A stretch of 64,000 nt of DNA, taken from the IMG/VR virus record IMGVR_UViG_3300028127_000003. One strand, written 5' to 3'. The stretch is from a virus. Below are positions 31,654 to 50,540 of the stretch, piece after piece. Under the pieces are notes generated by a model. The model had not been told where the DNA came from, searched no databases, and was given only the letters and a program-made list of their open reading frames with translations. Positions within the stretch are counted from its first letter, which is position 1, and each line of letters opens with the position of its first letter. The position numbers were made by a program, and so were the translations under genes.

Positions 31654-32079
31654 TTAATATGTGGGTTTGTTAATGATCTTCTTTTTAACGAGGATATCTA
31701 CAAAATCTCTAAAGTCCATTCCTACCTTAGCTCCTTTAACGTCTTTATCACCTTCAACGAATACGCCACCATCAAAATAGTAACTCTTTCCATTATCGGC
31801 TGCTACTTTAATTAAAGTACCTAACATAACCTTTCCAGGAACTCTTACCTTAGAACCATGTAAAGCTTTTACGGAATCTTTGTTCCATTTGCTTAAATAC
31901 ATTTCTTCTCCAGTTGTACTTCCACCAGCTACCATTCCACCGGCTGCCGTTAATGCTTCACCTTCGGGTGTGTCTCTTTCAGCATAAAGAACTGCGATGA
32001 TTTCTTTTGCTAGATCTTGGTCTCTTCCGACCTTTAATCCCTCGTTAAGGAACTGTTCAAATAATTGTACGTGTTTCAT
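31654..32079 (-). CDS. Hypothetical protein with capsid-targeting-like N-terminus
   Basis: Starts MKHVQLFEQFLNE. Confidence 0.6.
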   Translation of the reverse strand: MKHVQLFEQFLNEGLKVGRDQDLAKEIIAVLYAERDTPEGEALTAAGGMVAGGSTTGEEMYLSKWNKDSVKALHGSKVRVPGKVMLGTLIKVAADNGKSYYFDGGVFVEGDKDVKGAKVGMDFRDFVDILVKKKIINKPTY

Positions 32080-32102
32080 AATTGTTTTTATTTATTTTAT
32101 TC

Positions 32103-32579
32103 TTAGATTTTAACTTGTCCGTTACTGACGTCGATATTTGTTTCGCCAGATCTTAAAATATTTGGAGGTAATATTTCTTTATTATATTTTTTAGATAGAT
32201 ACTCAATTCTATTAGCATCCTTAACTGGTAGTCTTTTTGTATTAATAAACTGTTCTCTAATAGGATTTTTATAAGTAGCATTAAGCATTAATTTCCATTT
32301 CTTCTTTCCAGAATCTTGATTAGGAATTAGTAATACATCACCTTCTTTGATAGAAAATGGATTTGAAATTCCATTAAATTTTAAAATATCATCAGTACGA
32401 TCATGTGTTCCGTATTCTGACAAAGATATTAGATCTATTCTACCCGTTTCGTCAGCTTCTACAATATGTATTGATTGTACTGCGCTTTCCGTCATGTCTA
32501 GAAAAACAAACGATGGAGAAGCCATTGTTAGTTTATCCTCAGATAATTTCTTATTATCTATACTATATAGTTTTATCAT
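32103..32579 (-). CDS. Baseplate wedge gp53 / LysM-tail X-like protein
   Basis: HIVEADETGRIDLISLSEYG...ILKFNGISNPFSIKEGDVLLIP. Confidence 0.75.
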   Translation of the reverse strand: MIKLYSIDNKKLSEDKLTMASPSFVFLDMTESAVQSIHIVEADETGRIDLISLSEYGTHDRTDDILKFNGISNPFSIKEGDVLLIPNQDSGKKKWKLMLNATYKNPIREQFINTKRLPVKDANRIEYLSKKYNKEILPPNILRSGETNIDVSNGQVKI

Positions 32580-34342
32580 TATCCGTTAGCTATTTTTCTA
32601 AATTCTCTATTGAGAGCCTTTCTCTTATCTTTACCACCGTAGGCTGTTTCAATATAAGTTTGATTAACATCAACTCCTTCTTCAGGCTGTAAATAAAATC
32701 TACCTCTACCCATATTAAACATAGATTCAATATCCAGTTTATCTCTAGCTCTACCAGGCTTAAGAGTTATTTCTACTGTCATTCTTTCTGGAAAATCTTG
32801 TACACCCATACCTCCTTCAAAGGTAACGTTAGTTTCTCTACATGTTAAATTACCTACCATCATTATAGGATTTAAAGGATTACCAACCGTAAGGTGCCAT
32901 GAACCCGTAGGATCACCTGTTAATAAAGATGCTGCCGCCTGTCCACCTCCTGGAGAATTAAACATTTTCATTAAAGTACCTCCTAATATATTATTTAAGA
33001 ATTTAGAATCACCTTTACCAGACATCGCGTTTCCTATATCTTTGGCAACTCCTTTAAACATGTCTCCTAAACCAGATGCAACGCTTTTAATAAATCCACT
33101 ATAATTACCCGATTTAATTAAACTAAGATCACCCAATGGTTTACCAGCTGATCCGTTTCCTACATATCTAACTGATCCTCCCCAGAAAGGAGCCTGACTG
33201 GAAGTTAGTACCATTATGTTTGCTAACTGATCTAGCATTAAAACCTTAGGATTTGCTCCACCAAAGGATCTTAATTCATATTCAAATTTAAGTTTAAATT
33301 CTTGATTAAAAGTTAAACCTTGATCTCTAAAAGATACATCTTTAATTACATTCACCGGACCGAATATATGATTAGGATATGTAGTTGCTTGTGCATCATA
33401 TCCACTTCCTCCGTTTTTTCTTCTTTGTGCCGTTACACCATCTACACCTGCCGCTGCATTAGCCGCTGCAGTACCTATTACACTAGAATCTAAGAATTGT
33501 CCAAATGCACCTCTTCTGCTTGAGTTATTAGATTGTACAGTTTGCACTGAAGCTGATTCATCTTTCCAATTATATCCATGTGACCAATTAAGAATTGAGG
33601 ACATACTATTACCTGTAACTTCACTCATCCATGTTACTGCTCTTGCAATATCGGGTTGATCTGTTTCACGCACTTTACCATCTTTATCAATGTCCATTGG
33701 TGTAATAATATCATCCTGTACTGGATATGGAAATCTTCTTAAAGTTAGTAGATAATTATTAGGTATTTTACCATTATATCTACACATTGCAAAGTCGGCG
33801 TAATTATACATATATCCATATCCACTTGAACCGGCTGCATTATTTTTAGTAACTTCTACTATTTTAGAAACAGTAGGATTATCTAATGTTCTCTCGTCTA
33901 TTTTATTATATTCAATAGAGTCTACTCCTTTAGACTTAGCAGCTCCACCTGGTGTAAAGAAACTACCTCTATAATTTACTAGAGTATATTTATTAAAAGT
34001 AGAATATGCATGTACACCATCCGTTATTTTTTCTTTAGTGTCTTTTCCATCCTTTCCTCTTTTATAATATATTACTGAGTCAGCCTCTTGTGTATAATAT
34101 TGTGATTTTCCACCAGGAGCAACGTTACTTAAAGGCTCACCCACTAAAAGAGCTCTACTTCTTGTGTTAGGGTTATCAAACGTTCCGAGCAGTGTATTCT
34201 GAGGATCTACATTCGCAGAACGAGCACCCTTTCCGTCTGGGCTTGACAAATTAAAGAAGTTATCTACTTTATCTCCAAATCCTGAAACTGATGATTTTAA
34301 ACTGGAAGCGGCTCCCGCTGATACTAATCCAAATAATGGCAT
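32579..34342 (-). CDS. Possible baseplate-tail tube junction/tube initiator (gp48/gp54-like)
   Basis: FKLKFEYELRS and WHLTVGNP...NLTCRETNVTF...FPERMTVEITLK resemble the tube-initiator fold; adjacent to the gp53-like gene. Confidence 0.45.
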   Translation of the reverse strand: MPLFGLVSAGAASSLKSSVSGFGDKVDNFFNLSSPDGKGARSANVDPQNTLLGTFDNPNTRSRALLVGEPLSNVAPGGKSQYYTQEADSVIYYKRGKDGKDTKEKITDGVHAYSTFNKYTLVNYRGSFFTPGGAAKSKGVDSIEYNKIDERTLDNPTVSKIVEVTKNNAAGSSGYGYMYNYADFAMCRYNGKIPNNYLLTLRRFPYPVQDDIITPMDIDKDGKVRETDQPDIARAVTWMSEVTGNSMSSILNWSHGYNWKDESASVQTVQSNNSSRRGAFGQFLDSSVIGTAAANAAAGVDGVTAQRRKNGGSGYDAQATTYPNHIFGPVNVIKDVSFRDQGLTFNQEFKLKFEYELRSFGGANPKVLMLDQLANIMVLTSSQAPFWGGSVRYVGNGSAGKPLGDLSLIKSGNYSGFIKSVASGLGDMFKGVAKDIGNAMSGKGDSKFLNNILGGTLMKMFNSPGGGQAAASLLTGDPTGSWHLTVGNPLNPIMMVGNLTCRETNVTFEGGMGVQDFPERMTVEITLKPGRARDKLDIESMFNMGRGRFYLQPEEGVDVNQTYIETAYGGKDKRKALNREFRKIANG

Positions 34343-34370
34343 ATTGTAATATTATGTTTTTACTAGGTTT

Positions 34371-34378
34371 TATATATT
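34371..34378 (-). promoter_or_regulatory. Candidate late promoter RATATATA
   Basis: AATATATA 28 nt before ATG 34342, at the head of the baseplate block. Confidence 0.58.
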
Positions 34379-34968
34379 CACAATTCTATGTCATCCAGAT
34401 CGTCTGACTGTGGTCTATATAAAAGCTTATCATAATATTTATCCGTCTTTGGTTCTCTATCTCCTAAAAACTTCTTGAGATGGGCAGCATATACTCCCCT
34501 GGATTGATAATAATATTTGCCAGAAGAATATACACTTCTGCTTGAGAGTTCAAATATATCTTTAAAATTCTTTTCGATTAAGAAATCTTGTATATTATTA
34601 AATAGATCTATTACCTCTGTCTTGGTTTTAACACACATTACAGAATCAACTGAGATCATATAAGATTCCCATTTAGAATCTATTTGATTCTGAAAATCTT
34701 TCATAGATTTATAGTTCTTTCTAGTAAGACCGAATGTTGTAGTTCTATTATTAAAGTCTTTTGAAAACTTCATACCGAAGAGATATCTTTTTAAGAAATC
34801 TATGTTGTCATGAAACTTAGTAATTCTTATTTGATACCTTGGCATATCCTCGTCGAACTTAACGTCATGAATTATTCCATAAACGGGAAATACAATGTGA
34901 GAATGTCTAGTGTTGGATATAAGGGCATGTATTCTTTCACCCTTTGAAAATAACTTATGCCTTATCAT
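34378..34968 (-). CDS. Hypothetical protein
   Basis: 196-aa ORF, same strand, abutting neighbours. Confidence 0.6.
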   Translation of the reverse strand: MIRHKLFSKGERIHALISNTRHSHIVFPVYGIIHDVKFDEDMPRYQIRITKFHDNIDFLKRYLFGMKFSKDFNNRTTTFGLTRKNYKSMKDFQNQIDSKWESYMISVDSVMCVKTKTEVIDLFNNIQDFLIEKNFKDIFELSSRSVYSSGKYYYQSRGVYAAHLKKFLGDREPKTDKYYDKLLYRPQSDDLDDIEL

Positions 34969-35369
34969 TATAGATCGATTATCTTGACGCTTTCGAATCT
35001 TTTAAGAACGCCTTTAGGATAATCATCTCTGTTAATGACTGTTAAGTTTAGTGATGCATCAGGTTCTATTGTTTCTTTTAAAAATAATTTAAAGTTGTCA
35101 ATAGTTTCTGCATCTAAATTTTTAAATAAGTAAATGATTTTTTCTAAGTCGGCATTCTTATTTAGAACATTAATGAAAGAATCTCTTATTGCAAGACCAA
35201 TTACAGAGCGATGTGGTTCAGTGTCATAGGGATCTGATTTAACTAGCTTATTTCTAATGCTATAGAAATCTATAACCGTTTCTCCTGGGTTGTTTCTACA
35301 GAATTTATTAAATTCCTTTCTACTATTACACCATACACATTCTATTGTAATTTCAGTCGTTGTTGTCAT
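34968..35369 (-). CDS. Hypothetical protein
   Basis: 133-aa ORF overlapping neighbours by 1-4 nt. Confidence 0.6.
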   Translation of the reverse strand: MTTTTEITIECVWCNSRKEFNKFCRNNPGETVIDFYSIRNKLVKSDPYDTEPHRSVIGLAIRDSFINVLNKNADLEKIIYLFKNLDAETIDNFKLFLKETIEPDASLNLTVINRDDYPKGVLKRFESVKIIDL

Positions 35370-35680
35370 CTTATCAATTTCTCCAATTCTTTAATTTTAG
35401 TTTGTAAAGTTTGGATTTTATGTTTTGTTTCGATGGTAGAGGGACTGTAATTAGTTCCCCATTCAGTGACCACCTTTATTTGATTAGATTGTTTTGAATT
35501 ACCAAAATCTAATCCGACATCGATACAGATATCTCTGATAAAATTTAATCTATCATCGATACCTTTATCAAAATCATAGACAATAACTGACTCGTATTTC
35601 TCACCAGCCGCATTGATGTTATCATCTGTTACGGTTTTAATTACACCGTTATCTGCTATCTTAAGAGTTATCTCCTGCAT
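35366..35680 (-). CDS. Hypothetical protein
   Basis: 104-aa ORF in a coupled run. Confidence 0.6.
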   Translation of the reverse strand: MQEITLKIADNGVIKTVTDDNINAAGEKYESVIVYDFDKGIDDRLNFIRDICIDVGLDFGNSKQSNQIKVVTEWGTNYSPSTIETKHKIQTLQTKIKELEKLIR

Positions 35681-36047
35681 TTAGTCTTTCTTCTAGGGAT
35701 TGTTGAACTTTCTTGTATATTTTCCTAGCCGCTTTTCTATCAGCTCTATAAGTTTCTTTATCTTTGATTGTAGTCATTGCGAAGGCTTCTTCTAATAAAT
35801 CAATCTCTTCTTTATTATAACCCACCTTAGTCCATGTTTCCTTTAATGAATTAAGCTTTGAACCTAACTGCTCTTCAATTTGGTCATTGACTTTTTTCTC
35901 ATGAGCCTCTTGGAATTGTTTTCCTTCCTCCTGTTTCATGGCGTACCACGCTATTCCTTTTTCAGAGAATCTTCCCCATTCGTTTTTAGCTTTTAATAAC
36001 CCAGCTCTTTTATAGGTGTCTCTTCTGTATTTTCTTGCTTGACTCAT
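35661..36047 (-). CDS. Hypothetical basic helical protein
   Basis: 128-aa ORF in a coupled run. Confidence 0.6.
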   Translation of the reverse strand: MSQARKYRRDTYKRAGLLKAKNEWGRFSEKGIAWYAMKQEEGKQFQEAHEKKVNDQIEEQLGSKLNSLKETWTKVGYNKEEIDLLEEAFAMTTIKDKETYRADRKAARKIYKKVQQSLEERLNAGDNS

Positions 36048-36562
36048 AGTTTATAATAATTAGTTACAAATTCAGTTATTTGTTCGTTTAAAAATTCTTG
36101 TAGGTTATTTATCTCTATTTGAGAAACAGCTGATTTAGAGATCTCTTCTAAGATTTGTTCTTTTTCTTCTTCAGAGTTTTCAACTAGCATGTTAAATATT
36201 TCTTTCTTAGGAAGATTAATTCCTACGCTTAATTGAAATGATTCGACATTCTTAGCAGATAAAGTTTTAATTAATTGACCAAGGGGAGAAGTATTTTCTT
36301 TAACTTCTACCTTTTTTTCAATTTCTTTAACGGGAGCTTTTTTAGGCGTAGGTGTAGTTCCTACAAGCTCGACTCCAGGAAATGGTAATCCTTCAGTAGT
36401 TATTAGTTCTAAAAACTCAGGTAATACTTTGTTGAATATTTTAGATCCATCTTTAAAGTAAGTAAATTCAGAATCTTTAGATTCTACCTCAACCACTTTA
36501 CCAAAATTATCTCCCTTTTTCCACTGATATTTTACAATATCTTTTTCTTCAGTTGTTTGCAT
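36044..36562 (-). CDS. Hypothetical protein
   Basis: 172-aa ORF directly downstream of the promoter motif at 36581. Confidence 0.65.
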   Translation of the reverse strand: MQTTEEKDIVKYQWKKGDNFGKVVEVESKDSEFTYFKDGSKIFNKVLPEFLELITTEGLPFPGVELVGTTPTPKKAPVKEIEKKVEVKENTSPLGQLIKTLSAKNVESFQLSVGINLPKKEIFNMLVENSEEEKEQILEEISKSAVSQIEINNLQEFLNEQITEFVTNYYKL

Positions 36563-36580
36563 GATTTAACCTATTTTATT

Positions 36581-36607
36581 ATTATACACCTAAACTTAGA
36601 AAAGTTT
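36581..36607 (-). promoter_or_regulatory. Bipartite promoter motif AAACWWTT-N13-TATARY
   Basis: AAACTTTT-CTAAGTTTAGGTG-TATAAT, upstream of ATG 36562. Confidence 0.7.
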
Positions 36608-36811
36608 AAGCTGTGGTATAATATAGAAGGTATTAGATTCTCCTTCTTGATAGAACTTTATAAAGTCGTTTATAAAGGCATGGGATGTAGATGGTCCTAT
36701 CATTGCCTCTGTCTTTTTAATATACCTTCTAAAAAACTCATGGCTTCCATGTTCTTTTAAATAGTCTTCTAGGCGGTTTACTTCTGGTAAGTTTATTTTA
36801 TTAATGCTCAT
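36596..36811 (-). CDS. Hypothetical protein
   Basis: 71-aa ORF overlapping the end of the dCMP deaminase gene. Confidence 0.5.
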   Translation of the reverse strand: MSINKINLPEVNRLEDYLKEHGSHEFFRRYIKKTEAMIGPSTSHAFINDFIKFYQEGESNTFYIIPQLKLF

Positions 36812-37307
36812 TCCATACGATTACTTGTTCAACAATAATTCCTGCCTTTTTTAATAAAGAAATACCTGACAGATCTCTATATCCTTCACAGTAGAATACT
36901 TTTTCTACACCAGCTTGTATAATTAACTTAGCGCATTCAAAGCATGGAGAAGTAGTAGTATATAGGATCGATCCTTTCGAAGTAAGTGTAGATTTTGAAA
37001 TCTTCATTAGTGCATTTGATTCTGCATGTAAGACTTCTTGTTTAGTAACTTGTTTAGAACAACAAGTATCTTCACATTCATATCCTTTTTCTATTAAAAT
37101 TTCTTTGTGATCAGGATTATCTATATTTCTAGTTTGAGTTTCTTCACATTGATTATCAAAACCATGTGGAGTTCCATTATATCCAAATGAAACAATCTGC
37201 TCGTCTTTAACTACTATACAGCCGACTTTCCTTCTCTCAGCATAACTAAGTTTAGAAATTTGATATGCTATTTGCATGTATATTACGTCTACTGAAATTC
37301 TTGGCAT
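36801..37307 (-). CDS. dCMP deaminase (ComEB/dCMP deaminase family)
   Basis: KVGCIVVKD..IVSFGYNGTP, HAESNAL, PCFECAKLIIQAG zinc-deaminase motifs. Confidence 0.92.
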   Translation of the reverse strand: MPRISVDVIYMQIAYQISKLSYAERRKVGCIVVKDEQIVSFGYNGTPHGFDNQCEETQTRNIDNPDHKEILIEKGYECEDTCCSKQVTKQEVLHAESNALMKISKSTLTSKGSILYTTTSPCFECAKLIIQAGVEKVFYCEGYRDLSGISLLKKAGIIVEQVIVWNEH

Positions 37308-37320
37308 ATTACTTTATAAA

Positions 37321-37355
37321 TAAAAAGGGTCCATGTATTATACATGAACCCTTTA
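37321..37355 (-). terminator. Intrinsic terminator after the acidic protein, overlapping a promoter motif
   Basis: AAAGGGTTCATGTA-TAA-TACATGGACCCTTT then TTATTT; 14-bp stem with one G-U pair. Confidence 0.75.
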
Positions 37356-37363
37356 AAAAGTTT
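37337..37363 (-). promoter_or_regulatory. Bipartite promoter motif AAACWWTT-N13-TATARY
   Basis: AAACTTTT-TAAAGGGTTCATG-TATAAT, upstream of dCMP deaminase. Confidence 0.7.
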
Positions 37364-37381
37364 ATATTGTTAATTTTAATA

Positions 37382-38407
37382 TTAAGCTTCTGGAGTTTCC
37401 TCACCAACAGCTGAATCAGATTCTTTCATCTCATTCACTTTCTTAGAATATGCTTCGATCATTTCATTACATGCAGCTTCATAAGCTTCAACTGAATAAT
37501 CTTCTTTCATTTCTTTAAGGCATTGAGCAGCCATTCCGCCAACTAATGCAGCATTTTCTTTCATATAAGTTTCAACAGTATGCTCATCATGTGCATCGTC
37601 TTCCCATGCTTTAGCTTCATTTTTACAAGATTCGTAAACCTCTTTTAACATATCAGAAACTAGTGCTGTTTCTTCCTCTTCTTCAGCAACCTCTTCAGTT
37701 TCTTCTTCAGCAACTTCTTTAGTTTCTTCTTCAGCAACAACTTCTTCAGTTTCTTCTTCAGCAACTTCTTCAGTTTCTTCAGCTTCAGAAATTTCTTCAT
37801 TTCCAGCAGCATCAACAGTGTCTTCTAATTCAGCTTCTAATTCGTCTGATTTGTCTTCAGGAGTTTCACAGTCATTATCAACTACTTCAGTTTCATCTTT
37901 TAAATCTTCAGCAGGTAAACCAGCTTCTTCACCAGATTCAGTTACTGCTTCGATGTTTTCAACTATTTCATCTTCGATTACTTCTTCAGATTCTTTAATA
38001 CCTAAGAAATCGGCAGCAGCTGCCTTTAATTCGTCATAAGTATATTTGCCTGCTAGAGCGTCATCAAGAATTGTTCCTCCTTTTTTACCAATCGCGTATA
38101 ATGATACGTGATCAAATCCTAACCAAGGTCCAACGAATTCGTCTGATGCTTTTAAACCTAAATCAACGGATAGTGTCCATGATAAAGATCTTCTTCCTAG
38201 GAATTGGTCATTGTAACCTAATTTTCCAGCTTTAATATAACCGGATGCGTTTACTGCTTCTTCTATAGCATCACCGTTTCCTTGAACTTCTTCCGCTTTT
38301 TCTTCAGATTGTTCAACTGGCTCAGCTGTTGCAACTACGTCTTGTTGCACCTCCTCAGTTCTATCCATCTCAGATAAAAACTGTTCAAATGATTTTAATT
38401 TTGCCAT
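37382..38407 (-). CDS. Highly acidic protein with capsid-targeting-like N-terminus (prohead core/internal protein candidate)
   Basis: MAKLKSFEQFLSE start; Glu-rich repeats EEETEEVA; late-type motif upstream, terminator downstream. Confidence 0.6.
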   Translation of the reverse strand: MAKLKSFEQFLSEMDRTEEVQQDVVATAEPVEQSEEKAEEVQGNGDAIEEAVNASGYIKAGKLGYNDQFLGRRSLSWTLSVDLGLKASDEFVGPWLGFDHVSLYAIGKKGGTILDDALAGKYTYDELKAAAADFLGIKESEEVIEDEIVENIEAVTESGEEAGLPAEDLKDETEVVDNDCETPEDKSDELEAELEDTVDAAGNEEISEAEETEEVAEEETEEVVAEEETKEVAEEETEEVAEEEEETALVSDMLKEVYESCKNEAKAWEDDAHDEHTVETYMKENAALVGGMAAQCLKEMKEDYSVEAYEAACNEMIEAYSKKVNEMKESDSAVGEETPEA

Positions 38408-38447
38408 AATTTTTTATTTTATTTGTTTTATTGTATTAATTACTATC

Positions 38448-38455
38448 TATATATC
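38448..38455 (-). promoter_or_regulatory. Candidate late promoter RATATATA
   Basis: GATATATA 40 nt before ATG 38407. Confidence 0.55.
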
Positions 38456-38460
38456 CCTTT

Positions 38461-38943
38461 TTATAGGGTTTTAATCTTATTTTGTTTCATCCAGGCTTCT
38501 AGCTCTTTAACTGCTCTATCGAATACCCTGTTTCTATCAATTTTTAATTCAAATGAATTAAAGTAATTTTTCATCATATAATACGCAGGTTCTACGCTTT
38601 CATCATTCGCTGCTAGATCTTCTACGTGTTTAGAAACTTCATACGCATAATATGCAGATTTTTCAGCCATAGGGTTTGTCATTGCTTGATAGAATTGTCC
38701 ACCATAGAATTTACCTACTATGTCTCCGAATTTTTCTTTCATTTCTATCCATGAAATTCCTTCTAATCCAATCCATAATTTGGCTTGAACAGATTTCGTA
38801 TCTTTTCTAATAAAACCGGCCTTAGCCATTTCTTTAGATATATCTTTAATTTTCTTAGGAATTGGTAATTTACCAAACTCTTTTTCCCATGTAGAAATTT
38901 CTTTGTCGTTTACAAAGGATTCAAATAGCTTTATGTGTTTCAT
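38461..38943 (-). CDS. Hypothetical protein with capsid-targeting-like N-terminus
   Basis: Starts MKHIKLFESFVND. Confidence 0.6.
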   Translation of the reverse strand: MKHIKLFESFVNDKEISTWEKEFGKLPIPKKIKDISKEMAKAGFIRKDTKSVQAKLWIGLEGISWIEMKEKFGDIVGKFYGGQFYQAMTNPMAEKSAYYAYEVSKHVEDLAANDESVEPAYYMMKNYFNSFELKIDRNRVFDRAVKELEAWMKQNKIKTL

Positions 38944-39284
38944 TTTTTAGTTATTTGTATTTTCAAAGAAGAAGTACCCTGTATAATTCTATGATACTCT
39001 CCTGCATTTACTTCTATATATCCTTTTAATTCTATAGGGAGCTTATTATCATATTGGAACTTCCAATCATTTTCGTTTAAAGCTTCGATAACCCTGTCCT
39101 CCTCGTCGAAGTGCCATTTAAAAAGATGTTCAGGTTGGTTTGGTAAGAATTCTCTAATGATTATATTTTTTGAAACAGTCGTCTCCGTAAAGGGTAATGT
39201 TTTATCATCGACCATGGATATCATTTCTTCCATGGACATTTCTCCACAACCGCAACTTTTACATTTACAATCTTTATCTACCAT
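38940..39284 (-). CDS. Small cupin-like phage protein
   Basis: WHFDEEDR...WKFQYDN..P...GEYHRII two-His cupin-like pattern; true start may be a downstream Met. Confidence 0.55.
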   Translation of the reverse strand: MVDKDCKCKSCGCGEMSMEEMISMVDDKTLPFTETTVSKNIIIREFLPNQPEHLFKWHFDEEDRVIEALNENDWKFQYDNKLPIELKGYIEVNAGEYHRIIQGTSSLKIQITKK

Positions 39285-39817
39285 GGTTGATCACTTTTTA
39301 TACCAAGCTGTTTTCCAAAAAGAGTAGGTCCGTAACATGCCCAAAATCCCGCCTTAGTCGGATCCATCTTAGCCATTTTATCACAACCGTGTCTAGCCCA
39401 AAAGTTAGCTGCTCTTCCCGGGTCGTCGTTCTTAATAGTAGATGAAGGATCTCCCCATTCTAATTTCTTAGCAATGATGTTTCCTTCTTTATCAGTTCTT
39501 CCACTATTTCTGTAAACTATGAATTTCTTATTTCCACCCCTTGTTGGTGAATCTAATTTTACATTCTTTTGATTTCCTCCTCTAGGTTTATAGACTGCTT
39601 TAGTTCCTACTTCTAGATTTTTAGCCATCCATCCTGAAGGACCCTTTAAGATAATATTGTTTTTATCCCAATATTGCTTTACTTCTTCAAATAATTCAAT
39701 ATATGCATCGCTTCCTAAACGAAAGAATGAATTAGTAAGATCTAATCCTTCTTCAATGTGAGCTTTTAATTCGGGGGAAACTTCGTTCCAATCTTCAAAT
39801 GTCTTTATAAACTTCAT
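39278..39817 (-). CDS. Capsid-targeting-like N-terminus plus basic C-terminal domain seen in T4-like phage hypotheticals
   Basis: MKFIKTFEDWNE start; C-terminal WGDP...RAANFWARHGC...AGFWAC. Confidence 0.6.
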   Translation of the reverse strand: MKFIKTFEDWNEVSPELKAHIEEGLDLTNSFFRLGSDAYIELFEEVKQYWDKNNIILKGPSGWMAKNLEVGTKAVYKPRGGNQKNVKLDSPTRGGNKKFIVYRNSGRTDKEGNIIAKKLEWGDPSSTIKNDDPGRAANFWARHGCDKMAKMDPTKAGFWACYGPTLFGKQLGIKSDQPW

Positions 39818-41962: not shown

Positions 41963-42559
41963 TTACAAAAACTTATGGTACAGTTTACCTAAAGGATATT
42001 CGTTATCTTCTGACTCCATCTTTTCAGGATGCCATTGAACTGCCCATATCTTTTTATCTAAGTCTTCGAATCCTTCAACTACAGAATATAATGGATATGA
42101 AAGATGTGTAGCTTTGAAGTTTTTAGCTAGTATATTACAGTGTTGATGATGCCTAGAATTAACACTAGTTAATGTTCCATTTAAATCTTCAACCGTATGG
42201 AATTGAGATGGCTTCCCGCTATGATCAACGTCTTCTGAAAAGTCAGCTGCTTTATGATCTTCTACTATTGCATCAGATAAATCTTCTACCGTTCCTCCAA
42301 AATAATGATTTAGGATTTGCATTCCTCTACATATTCCTAATATTCTATTATTAGAATCCAGGGCCTGTTTAATCCATACGAATTCTTTAGCGTCCCTTTC
42401 TTCGTCTTTTCCAATGTCTGCTCCTCCACATAATAGTAAAGGGCCTTTGACCTTGCGTCTAAGATCTAGCCATATTATTTCATGGTTGTAATGTGAAAGC
42501 CAGAGTCGAATTGCCTCTTTTTCCTTTATTCCCCTTGGAGGTGCTACGTAAATAGTCAT
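41963..42559 (-). CDS. Class I glutamine amidotransferase / peptidase C26 (gamma-glutamyl hydrolase-like)
   Basis: LLLCGGADI, LGICRGMQILN (catalytic Cys), VNSRHHQ, AVQWHPE (His-Glu). Confidence 0.88.
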   Translation of the reverse strand: MTIYVAPPRGIKEKEAIRLWLSHYNHEIIWLDLRRKVKGPLLLCGGADIGKDEERDAKEFVWIKQALDSNNRILGICRGMQILNHYFGGTVEDLSDAIVEDHKAADFSEDVDHSGKPSQFHTVEDLNGTLTSVNSRHHQHCNILAKNFKATHLSYPLYSVVEGFEDLDKKIWAVQWHPEKMESEDNEYPLGKLYHKFL

Positions 42560-42596: not shown

Positions 42597-43154
42597 CTAG
42601 GATTTGAAAAGGTTGTTTACCTGATCAACGATATCTTTTCCTTTATAAGATGCCTTAAAATGTTTAAGCAATTCTTTCTTAGCTTTCTTTTTATCAGAAG
42701 ATGATAAATTGTCAAATCTGTCTATAATAGAAGAATTGTTATCTTTTGCGGCTCTATATTGTCCACCATCATCGATGTATTGTGCATATAGATCGTATGA
42801 TTTAAAGTATTTTAAGAATAATTCTAGATCAGATAAGATTTCTTTTTCTAGTTGATTCTTTAATTTTCTATAGATGGTTTTCTTTTTGTTATAGTAATAT
42901 TCCCATCCATCATTTTCTTGCATTCTCCATCCACTTACTTTATACATGTGGATTGTATCTTTAGAAGATAATTTGATTTCAAATTTAATACCCTTGTCAG
43001 TTGAAAGATCTTCAATGCTTTTAAGCATATCTTCCTTAGGTAATAATCTCGCCATAATCCATTCAACTTCCTGTTTCATTTCTTCAGGAGAACCCCAGTT
43101 CTTTTTGAAATCGTTATATGCGTAATACTTTTCGAATGTCATTAGATGTTTCAT
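42597..43154 (-). CDS. Hypothetical protein with capsid-targeting-like N-terminus
   Basis: Starts MKHLMTFEKY; late-type motif 4 nt upstream; terminator downstream. Confidence 0.6.
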   Translation of the reverse strand: MKHLMTFEKYYAYNDFKKNWGSPEEMKQEVEWIMARLLPKEDMLKSIEDLSTDKGIKFEIKLSSKDTIHMYKVSGWRMQENDGWEYYYNKKKTIYRKLKNQLEKEILSDLELFLKYFKSYDLYAQYIDDGGQYRAAKDNNSSIIDRFDNLSSSDKKKAKKELLKHFKASYKGKDIVDQVNNLFKS

Positions 43155-44852: not shown

Positions 44853-44868
44853 ATTAAGTTTTATAGGA

Positions 44869-44895
44869 GTTATACACACATTTAGTGAAATGTTT
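44869..44895 (-). promoter_or_regulatory. Bipartite promoter motif AAACWWTT-N13-TATARY
   Basis: AAACATTT-CACTAAATGTGTG-TATAAC, upstream of rnhB. Confidence 0.7.
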
Positions 44896-45622
44896 ATTTA
44901 GGCTCGTGGTTTTCCTTCCACTTATCGTATCTCTTTACAACTTCCTGAAGGATCTTTGCTCTAACAATATCTTTTTCAGTAAATTCATGCACACCTATTC
45001 CTTTAATACCTGTCATTAATTCAGTAAACGAAGGTAAACCAACATTGGCTTTAGATATATCATGCTGGCTAACGTCTCCTGTTACTATAACCTTAGAGTC
45101 TTTACCCATTCTTGTTACAAATAACATTAACTGCTTGAACGTTGCATTCTGTGCTTCATCTAATACCATTAATGATCCGTCAAATGTATCACCTCTCATA
45201 TAAGCCATTGGCCTAAATACAATAACTTCTTTCTCTACGAGAGTTTGTGCTATTTCAGATCCTACTATTTTTGTAATGTTCGATATGTATGATTGCATGA
45301 ATGGATCTATCTTGTCTGCGATATCTCCTGGTAAAAATCCTAACTTTTCACCTGCTTCCTGGATGGGTTTACATAATACTATTTGTGAAATCTCTTTTCT
45401 AGCTAAGAGGAGGAGTGCAGTATAACATGCTGTAAATGTTTTGGATGTTCCAGCTGGACCTGTGCAAAACGTTATCTGATTCTCTAGTATTGTGTTTGTA
45501 TATTTCTTTTGGGATTGTCTTAATTGTACTCCTTTTAATTCTGCTTCTTTTATTCCGTATCTTCTTCTTCTAGGTCCATCGGAACTAGATGAAGATTTAT
45601 TGTTTGAATTGTTTCTGCTCAT
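44894..45622 (-). CDS. phoH: PhoH-family ATPase
   Basis: GPAGTSKT P-loop, GEKLGFLPGD, AYMRGDTF, LDEAQN, TGDVSQHD. Confidence 0.93.
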   Translation of the reverse strand: MSRNNSNNKSSSSSDGPRRRRYGIKEAELKGVQLRQSQKKYTNTILENQITFCTGPAGTSKTFTACYTALLLLARKEISQIVLCKPIQEAGEKLGFLPGDIADKIDPFMQSYISNITKIVGSEIAQTLVEKEVIVFRPMAYMRGDTFDGSLMVLDEAQNATFKQLMLFVTRMGKDSKVIVTGDVSQHDISKANVGLPSFTELMTGIKGIGVHEFTEKDIVRAKILQEVVKRYDKWKENHEPK

Positions 45623-45636
45623 CGAGTTTAATTTTT

Positions 45637-45936
45637 TTAGTCTCCTGCCATTATTACCGTTTTTTTAAGCTGCAATAACGTATCACATTTTTCATACTCC
45701 TCAAGTTCTTCAAAATATTCTATAATAATATCTATGAACTTGCTTCTTTGTCCTTCGCCATGAGGGATTTCTATCGTATTCTTGCCTTCGCTGAATACAA
45801 CAAATCTATTAATGGTTTTAGTAAAATTTCTTGTGATAGTATAATAGCTTGATCTCATCAATGCGTCTTTGTCATCACTAAAAGATTCCTTCATTACAAA
45901 GTATATTTTTTTATATCGAGATATTAATAATCTCAA
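45637..45936 (-). CDS. Small protein with C-terminal UVR-like motif
   Basis: Ends YFEELEEYEKCDTLLQLKK. Confidence 0.6.
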   Translation of the reverse strand: MRLLISRYKKIYFVMKESFSDDKDALMRSSYYTITRNFTKTINRFVVFSEGKNTIEIPHGEGQRSKFIDIIIEYFEELEEYEKCDTLLQLKKTVIMAGD

Positions 45937-45938
45937 TT

Positions 45939-45946
45939 TATATATT
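45939..45946 (-). promoter_or_regulatory. Candidate late promoter RATATATA
   Basis: AATATATA 2 nt before the TTG start called at 45936; the true start may be later. Confidence 0.35.
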
Positions 45947-46000
45947 TAATTCCGGTAAGGTCTAAGGTAAAATGAAGTAAAAAAATATGTTATTATATTT

Positions 46001-46198
46001 CTACTTGTCCTTGTTTTCGGCGTTAGATTTCTTTTGAAGATATATTGCCTTTTGGAACTTAAGTCTCTTTAATGCAGAGGGCTTCGTATATTGCTTTTCA
46101 TCTCTAACCTTTTTCATCTGTTTGGTCTTAATGGTTTTACGCTTATACTGTTTTAAAGCTTTTTCTATATTCCCTTTATCTACATTAATTATTAACAT
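46001..46198 (-). CDS. rpsU: Ribosomal protein bS21
   Basis: MLII...NIEKALKQYKRK...Y.KPS..KR...KAIY matches Bacteroidota-type bS21. Confidence 0.88.
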   Translation of the reverse strand: MLIINVDKGNIEKALKQYKRKTIKTKQMKKVRDEKQYTKPSALKRLKFQKAIYLQKKSNAENKDK

Positions 46199-46497
46199 AT
46201 ATTGCTTATGATTTTTTTAAGTTCATGGCATCTTTCATATTCTTCTTGTTCTGCGAAATATTTGATAACCGTTTCTAGTGCTGCTATTTTTTCTTCTTTA
46301 GGAGAATTATTGTTTAATGCTCCCATTTCATTTTCAATTATAGCCTTATAAATTAAGTCCATCATTATCTCTTTGGATGATGATTTCAATTTTTCAATAA
46401 ACGCGATTGATTCTACGCTGTTGTTAACTTCAAATTCTGGATTATTTCTATTGGTATCTGAATTATCCCATTCGTCAAAATCTGGTAAATCATTCAT
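46192..46497 (-). CDS. Small protein with C-terminal UVR-like motif
   Basis: Ends YFAEQEEYERCHELKKI. Confidence 0.6.
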   Translation of the reverse strand: MNDLPDFDEWDNSDTNRNNPEFEVNNSVESIAFIEKLKSSSKEIMMDLIYKAIIENEMGALNNNSPKEEKIAALETVIKYFAEQEEYERCHELKKIISNIC

Positions 46498-47290
46498 TGT
46501 CTATTTCTTTTATTTTTTTTATTAGTTCTATTTGTGAATCTTTAAGGGGTGGATTAAATGCATTTAACTTCACCATAAGGTTACCATAAGTATTCATACT
46601 ATATATCGGGAATCCTTTACCACTTATTCTTAATATCTTATTATTCTGTGAATTTGGAGGAACATTTACCTTTATTTTATAAAAAGGCGTATTGATTTCT
46701 ATTTCAGTTCCTAGAATCATATCATAAAAAGAAACATTTGCATCTACATAGATGTCATTTCCGTTTAATATAATCCTATCATCATATTTTAAATTAATTA
46801 TAATGATTAGATCTCCTTTGGGTGCAGATGAATTAGCAGGATGAGGTTGACCTTTTCCACTAATTTTTAACTTCATACCTTCATAAACTCCTTTAGGTAT
46901 ATTAACGTTTAGTTTTTTAGAACCTATGTCTACTCTCTTTTGGGTTCCATGATAAGATTCTTCTAGGGTTATTGTCATTCTAACCGTAACGTCTCTTCCT
47001 TTTGAAGAGGAACCAAACGCATCATTGAACATATCACTGAAGGATCCTTCTCCGTTTTGAAACCAACTATGAAATGGATTGTCAGAAGACTTATATCCTA
47101 ATTCAATATCATACTTTCTTTTTCTGTTCTCGTCAGATAAAACCTCGTATGCTGTAACTATTTCTTTAAAGGAAGACTCATCCCCTTCGACGGTATCGGG
47201 ATGATATTGCTTTGCTAGTTTACGATAGGCCTTCTTAATCTCGGCTTGGCTTGCTGACTTGTCTATCTGCAGCAGTTCGTAGTAGTTCAT
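46490..47290 (-). CDS. dnaJ: DnaJ/CbpA-type J-domain co-chaperone (no zinc finger)
   Basis: NYYELLQI...EIKKAYRKLAKQYHPD, AYEVLSD, C-terminal LKISGKG, GDLII, LRISGKGFP. Confidence 0.92.
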   Translation of the reverse strand: MNYYELLQIDKSASQAEIKKAYRKLAKQYHPDTVEGDESSFKEIVTAYEVLSDENRKRKYDIELGYKSSDNPFHSWFQNGEGSFSDMFNDAFGSSSKGRDVTVRMTITLEESYHGTQKRVDIGSKKLNVNIPKGVYEGMKLKISGKGQPHPANSSAPKGDLIIIINLKYDDRIILNGNDIYVDANVSFYDMILGTEIEINTPFYKIKVNVPPNSQNNKILRISGKGFPIYSMNTYGNLMVKLNAFNPPLKDSQIELIKKIKEIDNE

Positions 47291-47429
47291 TCTTTCTTTT
47301 CTTTACGGCTTCCTTAACGACTTTAATGCTCTTTCTTTTTTCAACCACATCTCTTTTCTGTTGGTTTTCCATAAGATCTGCAATTCTCGTAAGTTGCTCC
47401 GCAATGACTTTTAATAATTGTTCTTCCAT
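47235..47429 (-). CDS. Hypothetical small protein (start moved to MEEQL)
   Basis: Helical basic ORF overlapping the dnaJ start; ATG at 47429 chosen over the ORF-track start. Confidence 0.5.
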   Translation of the reverse strand: MEEQLLKVIAEQLTRIADLMENQQKRDVVEKRKSIKVVKEAVKKRKNELLRTAADRQVSKPSRD

Positions 47430-47447
47430 GATATATTTATACACATT

Positions 47448-47732
47448 TTATTTATTGTCTAGAATATTTTTAAGATGTGCACATTTTTCATATTCTTCAG
47501 ATTCCTGAAACCAATCTAACATTTGCTGTAATGTTCTGATAATCGGTTCTATTTCTATGCCGTTGTCTTGCATTGATTTAAAGTCAACTCCTTTTTCTAA
47601 GATCATATCCCAGTTATTTCTAACTAGTTTATCTTTCAGTTCGTGAAGGTTATTTTCCATATCTGCATTTTTTTGAATTTGAGCTATTTCATCGTGCTCA
47701 TCGTTGTTTTGGTCTTCGAAGTCTTCAAACAT
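47448..47732 (-). CDS. Small protein with C-terminal UVR-like motif
   Basis: Ends WFQESEEYEKCAHLKNI; downstream of repeat copy 3. Confidence 0.62.
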   Translation of the reverse strand: MFEDFEDQNNDEHDEIAQIQKNADMENNLHELKDKLVRNNWDMILEKGVDFKSMQDNGIEIEPIIRTLQQMLDWFQESEEYEKCAHLKNILDNK

Positions 47733-47747
47733 ATTTCTTTATTTTTA

Positions 47748-47813
47748 ATTACTATACTAATATAAGCAAAATTTCTGAGATAAAAAAACTTTTAACTGTT
47801 TATTTTCAAAAAA
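47748..47813 (-). repeat. Dispersed ~65-bp intergenic repeat, copy 3 (candidate early promoter)
   Basis: Near-identical to copy 2; TATAGT element 18 nt before ATG 47732. Confidence 0.8.
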
Positions 47814-47820
47814 GTTTAAA

Positions 47821-48564
47821 TTAAAATGGAGCTTCAACCTTAGATACTAGTTCCATATCTGACATCTTTAACATCACGTTCATAGTTCCAATAACATCAT
47901 CTTCACAATAGTCTTTAATTTCTTCTAATCTTCCAGCGTAATACGCTTCTGATACTTCACCACCATACATGTTTTGTTTAGGAGAAGGTATCTGTAAAAG
48001 ATCACAGATCATAGAAAGAGATGCACCATTCCATCCGCCAAATTTCCATATTTCATTAGTGTCTAATAGACAATTCTCCCATGGCTTAAGTTTTTGTAAG
48101 TGTAATTGTTGTGGAATTTCTACACCTTGAATAATGGATCTTTTAATTAAGTAAGGCATATCAAAGCCTTTAATGTTATGACCTACTATTTGAATTTTAG
48201 GATTTGCCTTAAAGATTAATGCCATCGTATCCATAAATTCCTTTAGAGTATTCTTTTCATCATCTCCATAAAAAGACTTTATCTTAGGGGTAGGTGTAAT
48301 GCCATCTGGGAAGGTGACTTGTCCGATTGTAATAACTACTGCTCTTCCGAATTCAGGATAAAGGGCAGCATCCTTGATATACATATCAGCATCTGAAACT
48401 CCTTCATACTCTGATTTACTTTGTCTACCATACTTTGCTTTCTTTTCCCAGTGTGAGTATGCATTTTCTCCAATAATCTCTGCAAAGCTATCTAAGTCCT
48501 TTGCAGCAGTTGACGTTTCAATGTCAATAAATAACATGTTTTTTAAATCTGAAATACTATACAT
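47821..48564 (-). CDS. DEDD 3'-5' exonuclease related to the PolB exonuclease domain
   Basis: FIDIET, GHNIKGFDMPYL, DT.EIW, SL..IC..L.IPSPK, YCEDDV. Confidence 0.85.
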   Translation of the reverse strand: MYSISDLKNMLFIDIETSTAAKDLDSFAEIIGENAYSHWEKKAKYGRQSKSEYEGVSDADMYIKDAALYPEFGRAVVITIGQVTFPDGITPTPKIKSFYGDDEKNTLKEFMDTMALIFKANPKIQIVGHNIKGFDMPYLIKRSIIQGVEIPQQLHLQKLKPWENCLLDTNEIWKFGGWNGASLSMICDLLQIPSPKQNMYGGEVSEAYYAGRLEEIKDYCEDDVIGTMNVMLKMSDMELVSKVEAPF

Positions 48565-48805
48565 CTTTTTCTTGTTTTGGGTGAGTTTTTCTAATATTAT
48601 AAATAGAGACTGGATATCTCATTTGTCTTCCATAATTTCCATTAACAAATGTAAACCATCGATGGCCGTATGTTTCTGTTAATTTGTCAGAGGTACCTTC
48701 TAACTTTCCTACTTCCCATGATCCTGCGAAATAGAAATAGTACGTTTCGCCAATAATTGGCTTCTTAACGTGAATAATCTCTAGCTTCTTTTTCTTCTTT
48801 GCCAT
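48557..48805 (-). CDS. Hypothetical protein (start moved to MAKKK)
   Basis: ATG 4 nt downstream of the TATAAT of the promoter motif at 48810. Confidence 0.55.
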   Translation of the reverse strand: MAKKKKKLEIIHVKKPIIGETYYFYFAGSWEVGKLEGTSDKLTETYGHRWFTFVNGNYGRQMRYPVSIYNIRKTHPKQEKDV

Positions 48806-48809
48806 ATAG

Positions 48810-48836
48810 ATTATACTCAAATATGTGTAATTGTTT
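48810..48836 (-). promoter_or_regulatory. Bipartite promoter motif AAACWWTT-N13-TATARY
   Basis: AAACAATT-ACACATATTTGAG-TATAAT, 4 nt before ATG 48805. Confidence 0.7.
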
Positions 48837-49302
48837 ATATTTTCTTCTTTAATCTCATTAAGTATACTACTCTAGAGAAATGATAAAAGGAAAGAATAGG
48901 TATCTGTAACACTTCAAACAAGAATAAATTCTGTTCAGTGTTTATAAAGAGTGTTGGATATAATATTGCAGATATTATTCCAAAGATTTTAAATCTTTTA
49001 TCAAAGAGCATGATCCATGTCGATGACATAAAAAATAGAATAGCAGATATATTATGTATTGTAGGGTAATTTGCAACGCTAAAGCTTGCTATGATTATTA
49101 ATAAGAATGCCGGTATTTTCCATTCAATAGAACGATGAAGCCATAATCCTAATGAAACTCCTATTGTTAATAAAGGGAATAAGATTGGTTTTAATTGATG
49201 ATAATCACTATAACTATCCTCTATGCCTAGGATTAATGGCAGACACACTGTATATAATATTGCGTAAATACACAGTGCAAATCGTAACCATAATCTATTC
49301 AT
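48835..49302 (-). CDS. Multi-pass membrane protein
   Basis: Five to six hydrophobic segments; SYSDYH and HNISAILFF motifs. Confidence 0.6.
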   Translation of the reverse strand: MNRLWLRFALCIYAILYTVCLPLILGIEDSYSDYHQLKPILFPLLTIGVSLGLWLHRSIEWKIPAFLLIIIASFSVANYPTIHNISAILFFMSSTWIMLFDKRFKIFGIISAILYPTLFINTEQNLFLFEVLQIPILSFYHFSRVVYLMRLKKKI

Positions 49303-49328
49303 ACTTGGAAGTTTATTAACTATACTTA

Positions 49329-49355
49329 ACTATACACTTCCATTTGGAATTGTTT
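49329..49355 (-). promoter_or_regulatory. Bipartite promoter motif AAACWWTT-N13-TATARY
   Basis: AAACAATT-CCAAATGGAAGTG-TATAGT, upstream of ATG 49302. Confidence 0.7.
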
Positions 49356-49358
49356 CAA

Positions 49359-49583
49359 TTAAAAGTGTCCGTGTTCTTTAACACGTCTTATCATAAGATA
49401 TGTGTTATATGATACGTTAATTTCTGCATATCCTCCTGTAATTGTAGAAGGACAAGATTCTCTAGAAATCCAATAGCTAGGTGGTTCTTTAATTCTTTCT
49501 GTTATAAAGTCAAACAGTTTGTCAATGTCCATGTGATGAACCCATAAGTTCACATGCATACAAGTCATATCCGGATATGCCAT
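49359..49583 (-). CDS. Hypothetical protein
   Basis: 74-aa ORF in the run. Confidence 0.5.
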   Translation of the reverse strand: MAYPDMTCMHVNLWVHHMDIDKLFDFITERIKEPPSYWISRESCPSTITGGYAEINVSYNTYLMIRRVKEHGHF

Positions 49584-49586
49584 AAT

Positions 49587-50540
49587 TTATTCTTTTATTT
49601 CGAATCGTTCGCTGTCAAGTTCTATAGTTTTTTTATCTAAATCATTAGATAATTTTGTTAGGGCCTTGTCAGTATCTTTGTTTACTTCTCTTCCGTAAAA
49701 GTCTTTAAATATTTTACGGTATATTTGCACAGTAGAATCATAAGGAACTCCAGGTTGAGAATTACTTTCTATAATATACAATTTTCCTTCTTGATCTTCC
49801 ATTATATCAAAACATATATATGGTAAATCTTTAAACTTATCACAGAATTTTTCTATTAGTGTTTTAAATTTTTCAGGAAGAGTTGTAATATCTCTTTTGA
49901 TATATTTAAAATTCATTTCTTCTTTTCCGTCACCATCACCTGATTTTGCTTTATCATTTAATGGTTCTCTTTCCATCCAAAAGAAAGCATCTCCTTTAAA
50001 GTTAATTATTCTATGCTCTGATTTCTTATCTACGAATTCGGAATATACGTCAAATTTAGAATGATCAGCTTTATCCCAATCTTCCTGAGATTTAAAAACC
50101 TGAATTCCAATACCTGAATGTCCTTCAGCTGGCTTTGCAATTAATGGAAAACCAATTTCTAAAGCTTCTTTCTCGTCATGGCATGTTTGTGGAATGTTTT
50201 CATCTCCATCGACTATTTTATGAAACTCTGCCTTAGATCCAGATTGCTTAATGAATTCTGGTCTATTATATACATTTTCTTTTTTAACTAATCCTTCCTT
50301 TAAAAGGGTTTCAACTACTCCTGAATTATAGGTTAATATAGGATAGTCTGGATTAATATCTATGTCTTTATAATTGTCTTTATTGATTTGTATAAAGAAA
50401 TTATCTGACGCAAATCCTTTATAAGACCACCACCTGTGACCTGAGTCGGGATCAATTGCTAGATAAACTTTAAAAAGATCATTAGTATCTTCGTTTAGGC
50501 TTTCGTTAATAAATTGGTTGAATGATTGTATTTGCTTCAT
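49587..50540 (-). CDS. ATP-grasp fold protein with capsid-targeting-like N-terminus
   Basis: MKQIQSFNQFINE start; SKAEFH, FPLIAKPAEGHSGIGI, YSEFVD..SEHR, ICFDIM...LYIIESNSQPG. Confidence 0.8.
   Translation of the reverse strand: MKQIQSFNQFINESLNEDTNDLFKVYLAIDPDSGHRWWSYKGFASDNFFIQINKDNYKDIDINPDYPILTYNSGVVETLLKEGLVKKENVYNRPEFIKQSGSKAEFHKIVDGDENIPQTCHDEKEALEIGFPLIAKPAEGHSGIGIQVFKSQEDWDKADHSKFDVYSEFVDKKSEHRIINFKGDAFFWMEREPLNDKAKSGDGDGKEEMNFKYIKRDITTLPEKFKTLIEKFCDKFKDLPYICFDIMEDQEGKLYIIESNSQPGVPYDSTVQIYRKIFKDFYGREVNKDTDKALTKLSNDLDKKTIELDSERFEIKE

Follow-up and report, generated by a model that had tools for sequence, protein, structure and literature searches.

Unrelated proteins of a large T4-related phage share an N-terminal peptide that resembles the T4 capsid-targeting sequence

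The textbook example of a short address peptide to a phage head is the capsid-targeting sequence (CTS) of bacteriophage T4, which is already in use for cargo delivery and which Mullaney and Black are said to have described on the internal proteins in 1996. To our knowledge a CTS is documented essentially only in T-even phages, for a few internal proteins. Here we describe a 13-residue peptide (the tag, consensus MKHIKLFEQF[ILV]NE) found at the N-terminus of otherwise unrelated proteins encoded in a 64,000-nucleotide stretch (the window) of the IMG/VR virus record IMGVR_UViG_3300028127_000003. We read this shared N-terminus as a probable T4-type capsid-targeting propeptide, with a probability of roughly 70%. 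The window comprises bases 50915-114914 of the 133,305-bp record, which is ~44% complete (CheckV), has a G+C content of ~32% and encodes nearly all of its genes on the minus strand.

In T4, the first ten residues of internal protein IPIII suffice for packaging; residues 4 and 7 of the CTS are important in targeting, and residues 8 and 10 in processing, and an Asp at position 10 blocks processing while targeting is kept (PMC9026906). The CTS of the internal proteins is removed by the prohead protease gp21 (PMC9026906, PMC3012670), which cuts after L/I-X-E (PMC9026906). The diverse internal proteins of T-even phages have only the CTS in common (PMC3012670), and the kind of mechanism considered here is already known. 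In the giant phages phiKZ, 201phi2-1 and SPN3US, ejection and inner-body proteins carry long N-terminal propeptides, and gp21-related proteases cut after S/A/G-X-E (PMC5694885, PMC9026906). The first-pass annotation of the window had invoked the T4 CTS MKTYQEFIAE together with the gp21 rule. The rule is that of the literature just cited, and we found the CTS in the T4 record on ipII and ipIII, along with MKTFKEFTST on ipI and FGSFLTE↓AEIGG (arrow, cut site) at gp23, FGSFLTE occupying residues 59-65.

Six N-termini had been quoted from the window. All six were present and follow the pattern MK(H)xxxFExF-h-N-E (h, hydrophobic residue). Since all six genes lie on the minus strand, the start codon of each is found at its high coordinate, and the coordinates given at first were the low (stop) ends. 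Candidates were scored with a position weight matrix (PWM) built from 166 independent tags of other phages; all six frames of the record were scanned, and reversed sequence served as the control. The six genes are as follows.

31654-32079, minus strand: tagged gene, 141 residues, MKHVQLFEQFLNE then G; strongest member (PWM score 39.2), within a tail/baseplate gene block.
37382-38407, minus strand: tagged gene, 341 residues, very acidic and scaffold-like, MAKLKSFEQFLSE then M; PWM score 15.5, ATATATA 48 nt upstream.
38461-38943, minus strand: tagged gene, 160 residues, MKHIKLFESFVND, with the terminal Glu replaced by Asp (...FVND); PWM score 33.8.
39278-39817, minus strand: weakly tagged gene, 179 residues, MKFIKTFEDWNE then V; PWM score 7.2, ATATATA 12 nt upstream.
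42597-43154, minus strand: marginal member, 185 residues, MKHLMTFEKYYAYN; below the PWM threshold, ATATATA 12 nt upstream.
49587-50540, minus strand: tagged ATP-grasp ligase (by predicted fold), 317 residues, MKQIQSFNQFINE then S; PWM score 22.7, a core gene of the clade.

The shared N-terminus was thus confirmed, with four strong members (39.2, 33.8, 22.7 and 15.5), one weak one and a marginal one, 42597-43154, below the threshold. That the bodies are unrelated was confirmed, as no BLAST link joined any two tagged proteins of the record. An h-x-E site of the gp21 type closes the tag in four of the six genes. The fifth, 38461-38943, has Asp there and, by the T4 parallel, would on this reading be targeted but uncut; the sixth, 42597-43154, has the targeting half alone, with no h-x-E nearby. 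The protein of 31654-32079 has one tagged homologue, in another record (L036), and matched no family in Pfam, PHROG or NCBIfam.

The tag is strongly tied to the protein start. Its core, F[ENDQ].[FWY][ILVY][NS][EDS], occurs eight times in the record's 42,312 residues, seven of these at exactly residue 7, and over the whole record F[ENDQ]x[FWY] begins at residues 5-9 in 11 proteins (0.9 expected). Scanning the profile over the whole record, as the first-pass annotation had proposed, gave seven sites scoring at least 8 and none in the control; at a score of at least 5 there were 10 sites and one in the control. In the 166 independent tags conservation extends through Glu13 and the small residue that follows it (position 14; A/S/G, 65%) and no further, and positions 3-6, which were wildcards in the search pattern, are still conserved (H 56%, I 62%, K 68%, L/T 92%). 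Copies of the tag differ in their codons, the upstream DNA is unrelated between copies, and synonymous usage at the invariant residues of the 166 tags equals that of the protein bodies. These results indicate that the conserved object is a peptide and not a DNA repeat.

The T4 YQEFIAE and the FEQF[ILV]NE of the tag both fit aromatic-x-x-aromatic-aliphatic-x-Glu, so that Y4/F7/I8/E10 of T4 correspond to F7/F10/h11/E13 here; this alignment fits better than one of F7 on F7, which was dropped. The gp23 cut site FGSFLTE↓A fits the same skeleton, and some orthologues of the ATP-grasp protein have tags ending in ...FIAE, as in T4. A further candidate parallel, of the major capsid protein (MCP) start MA(Q/N)LINE↓AEIR with the gp23 cut site FLTE↓AEIGG, was rejected, as it is the beginning of the gp23 propeptide that BLASTP matches to the MCP N-terminus; LINE at MCP residues 4-7 is kept across the clade and carries no evidential weight.

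The phage itself appears to build a T4-type head. The 5' end of the record is a T4-type head module of portal, a 122-residue acidic protein and a protease-scaffold. The portal belongs to Portal_T4 (PF07230, E=2e-69) and the protease to the gp21-type Peptidase_S77 family (PF03420 at 41.6 bits, cut-off 27; phrog_207, E=1.6e-40). BLASTP aligned the protease with T4 gp21 (E=8e-10), placing GELDHP on GELNHP and ISSR on VSSR; the His and Ser motifs are kept, and the alignment does not reach the third catalytic residue.

Record 1-1551, minus strand: prohead protease fused to a long acidic scaffold-like tail, which is cut by the contig end.

The T4-type MCP (PF07068), off the contig in this record, is present in the relatives G018 (a complete 256-kb genome) and G004. 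With the portal, the gp21-type protease-scaffold and T4-type replication genes (UvsW, UvsY-like, gp61-type primase and gp32), the record is taken to be a fragment of a large T4-related phage; tail and baseplate genes are also encoded. The closest database relative of the portal is that of the uncultured 462-kb phage LR756500 (57% identity), followed by those of other huge phages and Lak megaphages (34-38%) and of the cultured jumbo phages Sphingomonas phage PAU and Tenacibaculum phage PTm1 (31-33%).

The same head type accompanies the tag elsewhere. Among the matches listed from a wider IMG/VR scan (below), 41 tag-bearing records of at least 60 kb were surveyed, almost all of them fragments. 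Portal_T4 was present in 24 of the 41, including every record at least 60% complete, and Peptidase_S77 in 23, and the HK97-type portal model, which does match control genomes, matched none of the 41. Of the 17 portal-less records, six had T4 gp32. The protease always lay within an open frame of 600-830 residues, and its fusion to the scaffold is therefore typical of the clade; the fusion is also annotated as such in PTm1. Furthermore, portal and protease flank a conserved small acidic gene whose product opens with the tag or a near variant of it (MKYVKLFEQFIKE, MKIIKTFEDFITE, MKTIKTFEQFINS, ...MKKLIKTFEQFIFE) in 12 of 18 head modules, and in G018 as well. Other head-module genes are tagged too, such as MQYVKLFEQFINEA between scaffold and MCP (L147). 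The T4 prohead-core genes 67 and 68 occupy the same place, between portal and protease.

Variants of the tag were found in two relatives. In PAU (JQ362498), 17 genes start MK[TS][LI]xxL[YF]E (none in the reversed control), 13 of them in the head region; the set includes the GenBank 'scaffolding' gp152 and the 'internal capsid protein' gp142 and gp154 (MKTISKLYEAKLNE then AS). The PAU MCP loses ~65 N-terminal residues, as established by N-terminal sequencing (PMC5646251), and its mature length of 520 of 585 residues places the cleavage point a single residue beyond an L-M-E site, which is suggestive, not exact. LR756500 carries a variant, MKYIKEYEEF, with 19 matches against three in the control. 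The strict tag was absent from LR756500, PAU and PTm1 in a pattern scan whose reversed-pattern control gave 0. T4, PAU, LR756500 and this clade make a suggestive graded series; the tag itself is too short for homology statistics. As a separate observation, the head module of LR756500.1 is interrupted directly after the MCP gene by open reading frames (ORFs) of 599 residues (13423-15222) and 289 residues (15401-16270) on the opposite strand, which by eye look like a repeat-rich homing endonuclease and a transposase/TnpB-like protein, respectively.

To see how far the tag extends, IMG/VR was scanned with the back-translated pattern ATG AAR N12 TTY GAR NNN TTY NTN AAY GAR, which gave at least 178 matches on at least 116 stretches. 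All 178 of the listed matches opened ORFs of at least 39 residues (median 134), with an in-frame stop a median of five codons before. Their mature parts fell into 124 clusters, 89 of them singletons, giving more than 100 unrelated bodies. Pfam searches with 148 tagged proteins from other phages returned scattered single matches (Acb1/2H-phosphoesterase, cREC_REC, cytidylyltransferase, ATP-grasp and several DUFs). Tagged genes also form tandem arrays that resemble the T4 internal-protein loci: 13 lie within 6.3 kb of G018, which has ~19 among its 348 ORFs, and nine within 5 kb of another record (L069). Across the clade 6-9% of genes are tagged. Tagged proteins with a ...CAMLYFDFP... start after the tag were seen at L023 3747-4292, in L057 (cut) and at G018 198662-199201; they are probably those matching Pfam Acb1 / 2'-5' RNA ligase (2H phosphoesterase).

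The tagged genes are also enriched for a promoter-like motif. ATATATA was the most enriched 7-mer upstream of genes over the whole record (25 genes, 2.3 expected) and was strand-biased, 46 to 8. It lies 10-66 nt before the portal gene, large tail/baseplate genes and many tagged genes, and precedes seven of 12 tagged genes as against 20 of 112 others (odds ratio 6.4, P=0.004). The first-pass annotation had reported a late motif upstream of three tagged genes, and ATATATA is indeed found before 37382-38407, 39278-39817 and 42597-43154, at the distances listed above (around window positions 38455, 39829 and 43166, respectively). Judged by the genes it precedes, ATATATA is a candidate late promoter, comparable to T4 TATAAATA. 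The earlier reading would have lost ground had the tag been equally frequent in non-late, host-like genes; the host-like enzymes of the window are without it. The untagged neighbours in the window are common enzymes, namely PhoH, DnaJ, UvdE, dCMP deaminase, GATase/C26, GT2 and a PolB-type exonuclease. Wherever sequence can test the capsid-targeting reading (T4 portal, S77 protease, tag in the head module, promoter enrichment), it was supported.

The scaffold offers a further parallel. The unit [FYW]xx[FYWH][ILVM]xE occurs in six copies at ~14-residue spacing in the scaffold tail of the record, as Y-x-x-[YH]-[LVI]-[AK]-E, a rate of 18.9 per 1000 residues compared with 0.54 in the proteome (~35-fold). 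It was found five to 12 times in each of 17 other scaffolds examined (YSEYLAE, YAEYIAE and similar), with a gp21-type h-x-E site closing every scaffold unit. In T4 gp22 the L/I-X-E sites number 16, but the aromatic unit is absent. In addition, the tagged protein of 37382-38407, which has a tagged orthologue in G018, has a stretch with 17 of 20 residues identical in common with the protease-scaffold tail. The resemblance between tag and scaffold lends weak support to a capsid-targeting role.

Among the tagged proteins an enzyme stands out. The first-pass annotation had called the product of 49587-50540 an ATP-grasp protein, and the fold agrees: the AlphaFold2 model (mean predicted local distance difference test score 84.4, predicted template modelling (TM) score 0.83) gave as top Foldseek matches in the PDB Ddl, LysX/ArgX, RimK, PsnB and other ATP-grasp ligases (MdnB-type) of ribosomally synthesized and post-translationally modified peptides (RiPPs), with probability 1.00, E ~1e-10, TM scores of 0.5-0.6 and 12-18% identity, so that none is a close characterized homologue. 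Pfam matches were sub-threshold. E258-x-N260, D245 and K136 are invariant in 33 ATP-grasp sequences, and E258, N260, D245 and K136 are the putative Mg/ATP-binding active-site residues, as judged from general features of the family. By fold, then, the protein is an ATP-grasp ligase, with a predicted activity. Residues 1-13 are modelled with low confidence, as a short helix detached from the body. We found 403 homologues, the best 120 of the 403 having 62-97% identity over the full length. All 32 aligned relatives start with the tag, with P2 (the second residue before the cut) varying between N, A, L and T, and in two orthologues an insert of ~60 residues falls after the tag, which thus stays at the extreme N-terminus. 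Homologues of the enzyme are present in G018 (tagged), G004 and LR756500, and the same search found none in PAU or T4.

Near these genes we also observed a gene for a Peptidase_C26/GATase (gamma-glutamyl hydrolase-type) protein (41963-42559, minus strand), which adjoins the marginal 42597-43154 and lies ~7 kb from the tagged ATP-grasp gene. That the ligase and a gamma-glutamyl hydrolase form a pair pointing to glutamylation chemistry is pure speculation.

In the mechanism we propose, the amphipathic tag helix, with its two aromatics, would dock a protein onto the scaffolding core during prohead assembly. The prohead protease would then cut after the terminal Glu of h-x-E, freeing the mature protein inside the head, and some cargo, possibly including the ATP-grasp ligase, would leave with the DNA when the phage infects. 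We regard a cut behind the terminal Glu as probable, if less so than targeting itself. That some of the cargo, at least, reaches the host cell we put at somewhat below even odds. The acidic 341- and 122-residue tagged proteins are more likely core or scaffold accessories, and some tagged proteins may belong to the core and be degraded rather than injected.

Several observations weigh against this account. We infer all three of encapsidation, cleavage and ejection of the tagged proteins. A cleavable Glu is missing from two of the six window genes (38461-38943 and 42597-43154), and the T4 L/I-X-E rule does not account for the conserved Asn at P2, which is partly imposed by the search pattern, looser tag sets having A, T, K, L, S or F there instead. 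The head module accounts for a minority of the tagged genes; in this record the others are located among auxiliary enzymes and next to replication genes. Mature parts of the tagged proteins are mostly acidic (median pI 5.75), and T4 internal proteins are basic. The gene between portal and protease had no match to the T4 gp67/68 families in a profile search, so its link to T4 67/68 is positional only. The scaffold-unit pattern was written after both tag and scaffold had been inspected, and a BLOSUM-weighted tag profile placed no scaffold window among its top 30 internal matches in two genomes. The resemblance is thus confined to four positions, and the idea of the tag as a copied scaffold repeat is unsupported. 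In PAU, 'internal capsid protein' is a GenBank label that may not rest on proteomics. PTm1, finally, has no tag by strict or looser patterns despite its protease-scaffold fusion.

The alternative that survives best, improbable as we consider it, is that the tag is a docking or localization helix for a target other than the core (neck, tail, baseplate, a shared chaperone or a cellular location) and is not cut by the prohead protease. The scattering of the tagged genes, with 31654-32079 inside the tail/baseplate block, fits this idea, as does the acidity of the mature parts, unlike the DNA-associated internal proteins of T4. A head-tail adaptor-like protein that holds the unit internally points in the same direction.

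22799-23632, minus strand: possible relative, a 277-residue head-tail adaptor-like protein (phrog_211) with FNDFVNE at residues 23-29, not N-terminal.

This FNDFVNE is the proteome's best internal match to the tag profile and just precedes the domain match, which starts at residue 30; it may belong to a longer propeptide with the same unit, or be chance. A docking helix for another target leaves unexplained, however, the invariant terminal Glu with its small following residue, the fit to the key positions of the T4 CTS, the tag on the portal-protease gene and on the PAU scaffolding protein, and the exclusive association with heads that have an S77 protease.

Still less probable is a role as a leader peptide by which a modifying enzyme recognizes its substrates, in which case the conserved ATP-grasp protein would bind the shared N-terminus and modify the tagged proteins. 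The enzyme is encoded by a conserved core gene, which the tag-bearing complete genomes G018 and G004 have and LR756500 has too, and its Foldseek neighbours include PsnB and MdnB-type RiPP macrocyclases, which bind helical leader peptides. The ATP-grasp protein is itself tagged in all orthologues examined, however, and PAU (17 tagged genes) and T4 (CTS) have the N-terminal peptide without a homologue of the enzyme, so that the tag is independent of it and the leader idea is weakened. Moreover, head-module genes are among those tagged, the peptide closes with an h-x-E of the protease type, and nothing points to a core peptide for modification.

A nucleic-acid feature (a translation-initiation region or a mobile promoter cassette) or AT-rich compositional chance could draw on the ATATATA upstream of several tagged genes and on MK starts and A-rich second codons being common in AT-rich phages, but is effectively refuted by the codon and upstream-DNA results above, by reversed-pattern and reversed-sequence controls of 0, and by conservation that covers the first 39 nt of the ORF and stops between two codons.

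The record, in which at least ten genes are tagged, holds further members outside the six described. They are:

Record 27633-34414 cluster, minus strand: tagged gene, 105 residues, MKKVKLFEQYINE; beside the replication module.
Record 27633-34414 cluster, minus strand: tagged gene, 444 residues, MKLYTNFDNFINE; beside the replication module.
Record 27633-34414 cluster, minus strand: tagged gene, 1072 residues, MSTKKTFESFVNSMNE; beside the replication module.
Between portal and protease: 122-residue acidic head-module protein, MKHLKTFKNYSNLTE, with a degenerate tag; one of several weaker candidates.

The cluster lies directly upstream of a cytidylyltransferase-domain protein and replication genes, and may hold a fourth member, a 623-residue ORF with an internal start MKNIISFESF at 29339. 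The 105-, 444- and 1072-residue proteins matched no known family, and neither a PDB sequence search nor the ESM Atlas gave a lead for the largest. Overall, Pfam, PHROGs and NCBIfam searches with nine or ten tagged proteins of the record returned almost no function for the bodies. Elsewhere in the window, a 1852-residue ORF (54135-59693, minus strand) has 16 matched stretches of the Pfam collagen triple-helix repeat and a C-terminal Peptidase_S74 (endosialidase chaperone) domain, and is thus a collagen-like tail fibre; it accounts for the jump in G+C to 41-42% and the strong GC skew at 54-60 kb.

We did not find a description of the tag in the open-access literature by full-text searches on capsid targeting with metagenome, jumbo-phage and propeptide topics. 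New here are the tag sequence, a much larger repertoire and the clade. If the capsid-targeting reading is confirmed, virion-packaged and possibly injected proteins of ungrowable phages could be listed from sequence, as a source of candidate anti-defence and host-takeover factors; T4, PAU, LR756500 and this clade would form a comparative series in which residues for scaffold docking can be sorted from those for cleavage; and the tag would provide a second, orthogonal means of loading cargo into phage capsids. A bolder version, which we think unlikely, is that the tag loads at least 20 different proteins per virion, including active enzymes (ATP-grasp, and Acb1/2H-phosphoesterase-like and cREC-like proteins in relatives), which are injected with the DNA as a takeover and counter-defence kit. 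Injected effectors could then be read directly from metagenomic sequence via the tag, and the ATP-grasp protein would represent a new kind of ligase carried in the virion, with either co-packaged core proteins or host targets as its substrates. An Acb1-like tagged enzyme, if packaged, could degrade cyclic-nucleotide defence signals upon entry.

Compared with known systems, the tag is closest to the T4 CTS, sharing with it an extreme N-terminal peptide of 10-13 residues on unrelated proteins, a small residue after the Glu and polymorphic tandem arrays. It differs in being three residues longer (MKHIKL-FEQFINE as against MKT-YQEFIAE) and in number, with at least ten tagged genes in a 133-kb fragment and ~19 in a complete 256-kb relative, compared with three in T4. 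The bodies, more than 100 and mostly acidic, include a conserved ATP-grasp protein, the protease is fused to the scaffold, and the system is known here from sequence alone. PAU shares the architecture MK-x-h-x-x-h-aromatic-E-x-x-h-N-E↓A/S and a T4-type portal, protease and MCP, but its peptide has one aromatic position, its tagged genes are concentrated in the head region, its protease and scaffold are separate and its portal is only 31% identical. The phiKZ group resembles this clade in comprising giant phages with many head-loaded proteins that are processed after Glu by a diverged gp21 homologue; its propeptides, however, are mostly 80-130 residues long with no single shared short tag, its cleavage motif is another and its head lineage is far from T4. 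Graspetide RiPP leaders (PsnB and MdnB/C structures 7dro and 7m4s) are likewise short helical N-terminal peptides, with an ATP-grasp of similar fold encoded alongside, whereas here the ligase is itself tagged, the tagged proteins are large, unrelated and folded, and some phages have the tag but lack the ligase. Together these comparisons point to the logic of the T4 CTS, with a different and longer tag, across a large group of uncultured jumbo phages.

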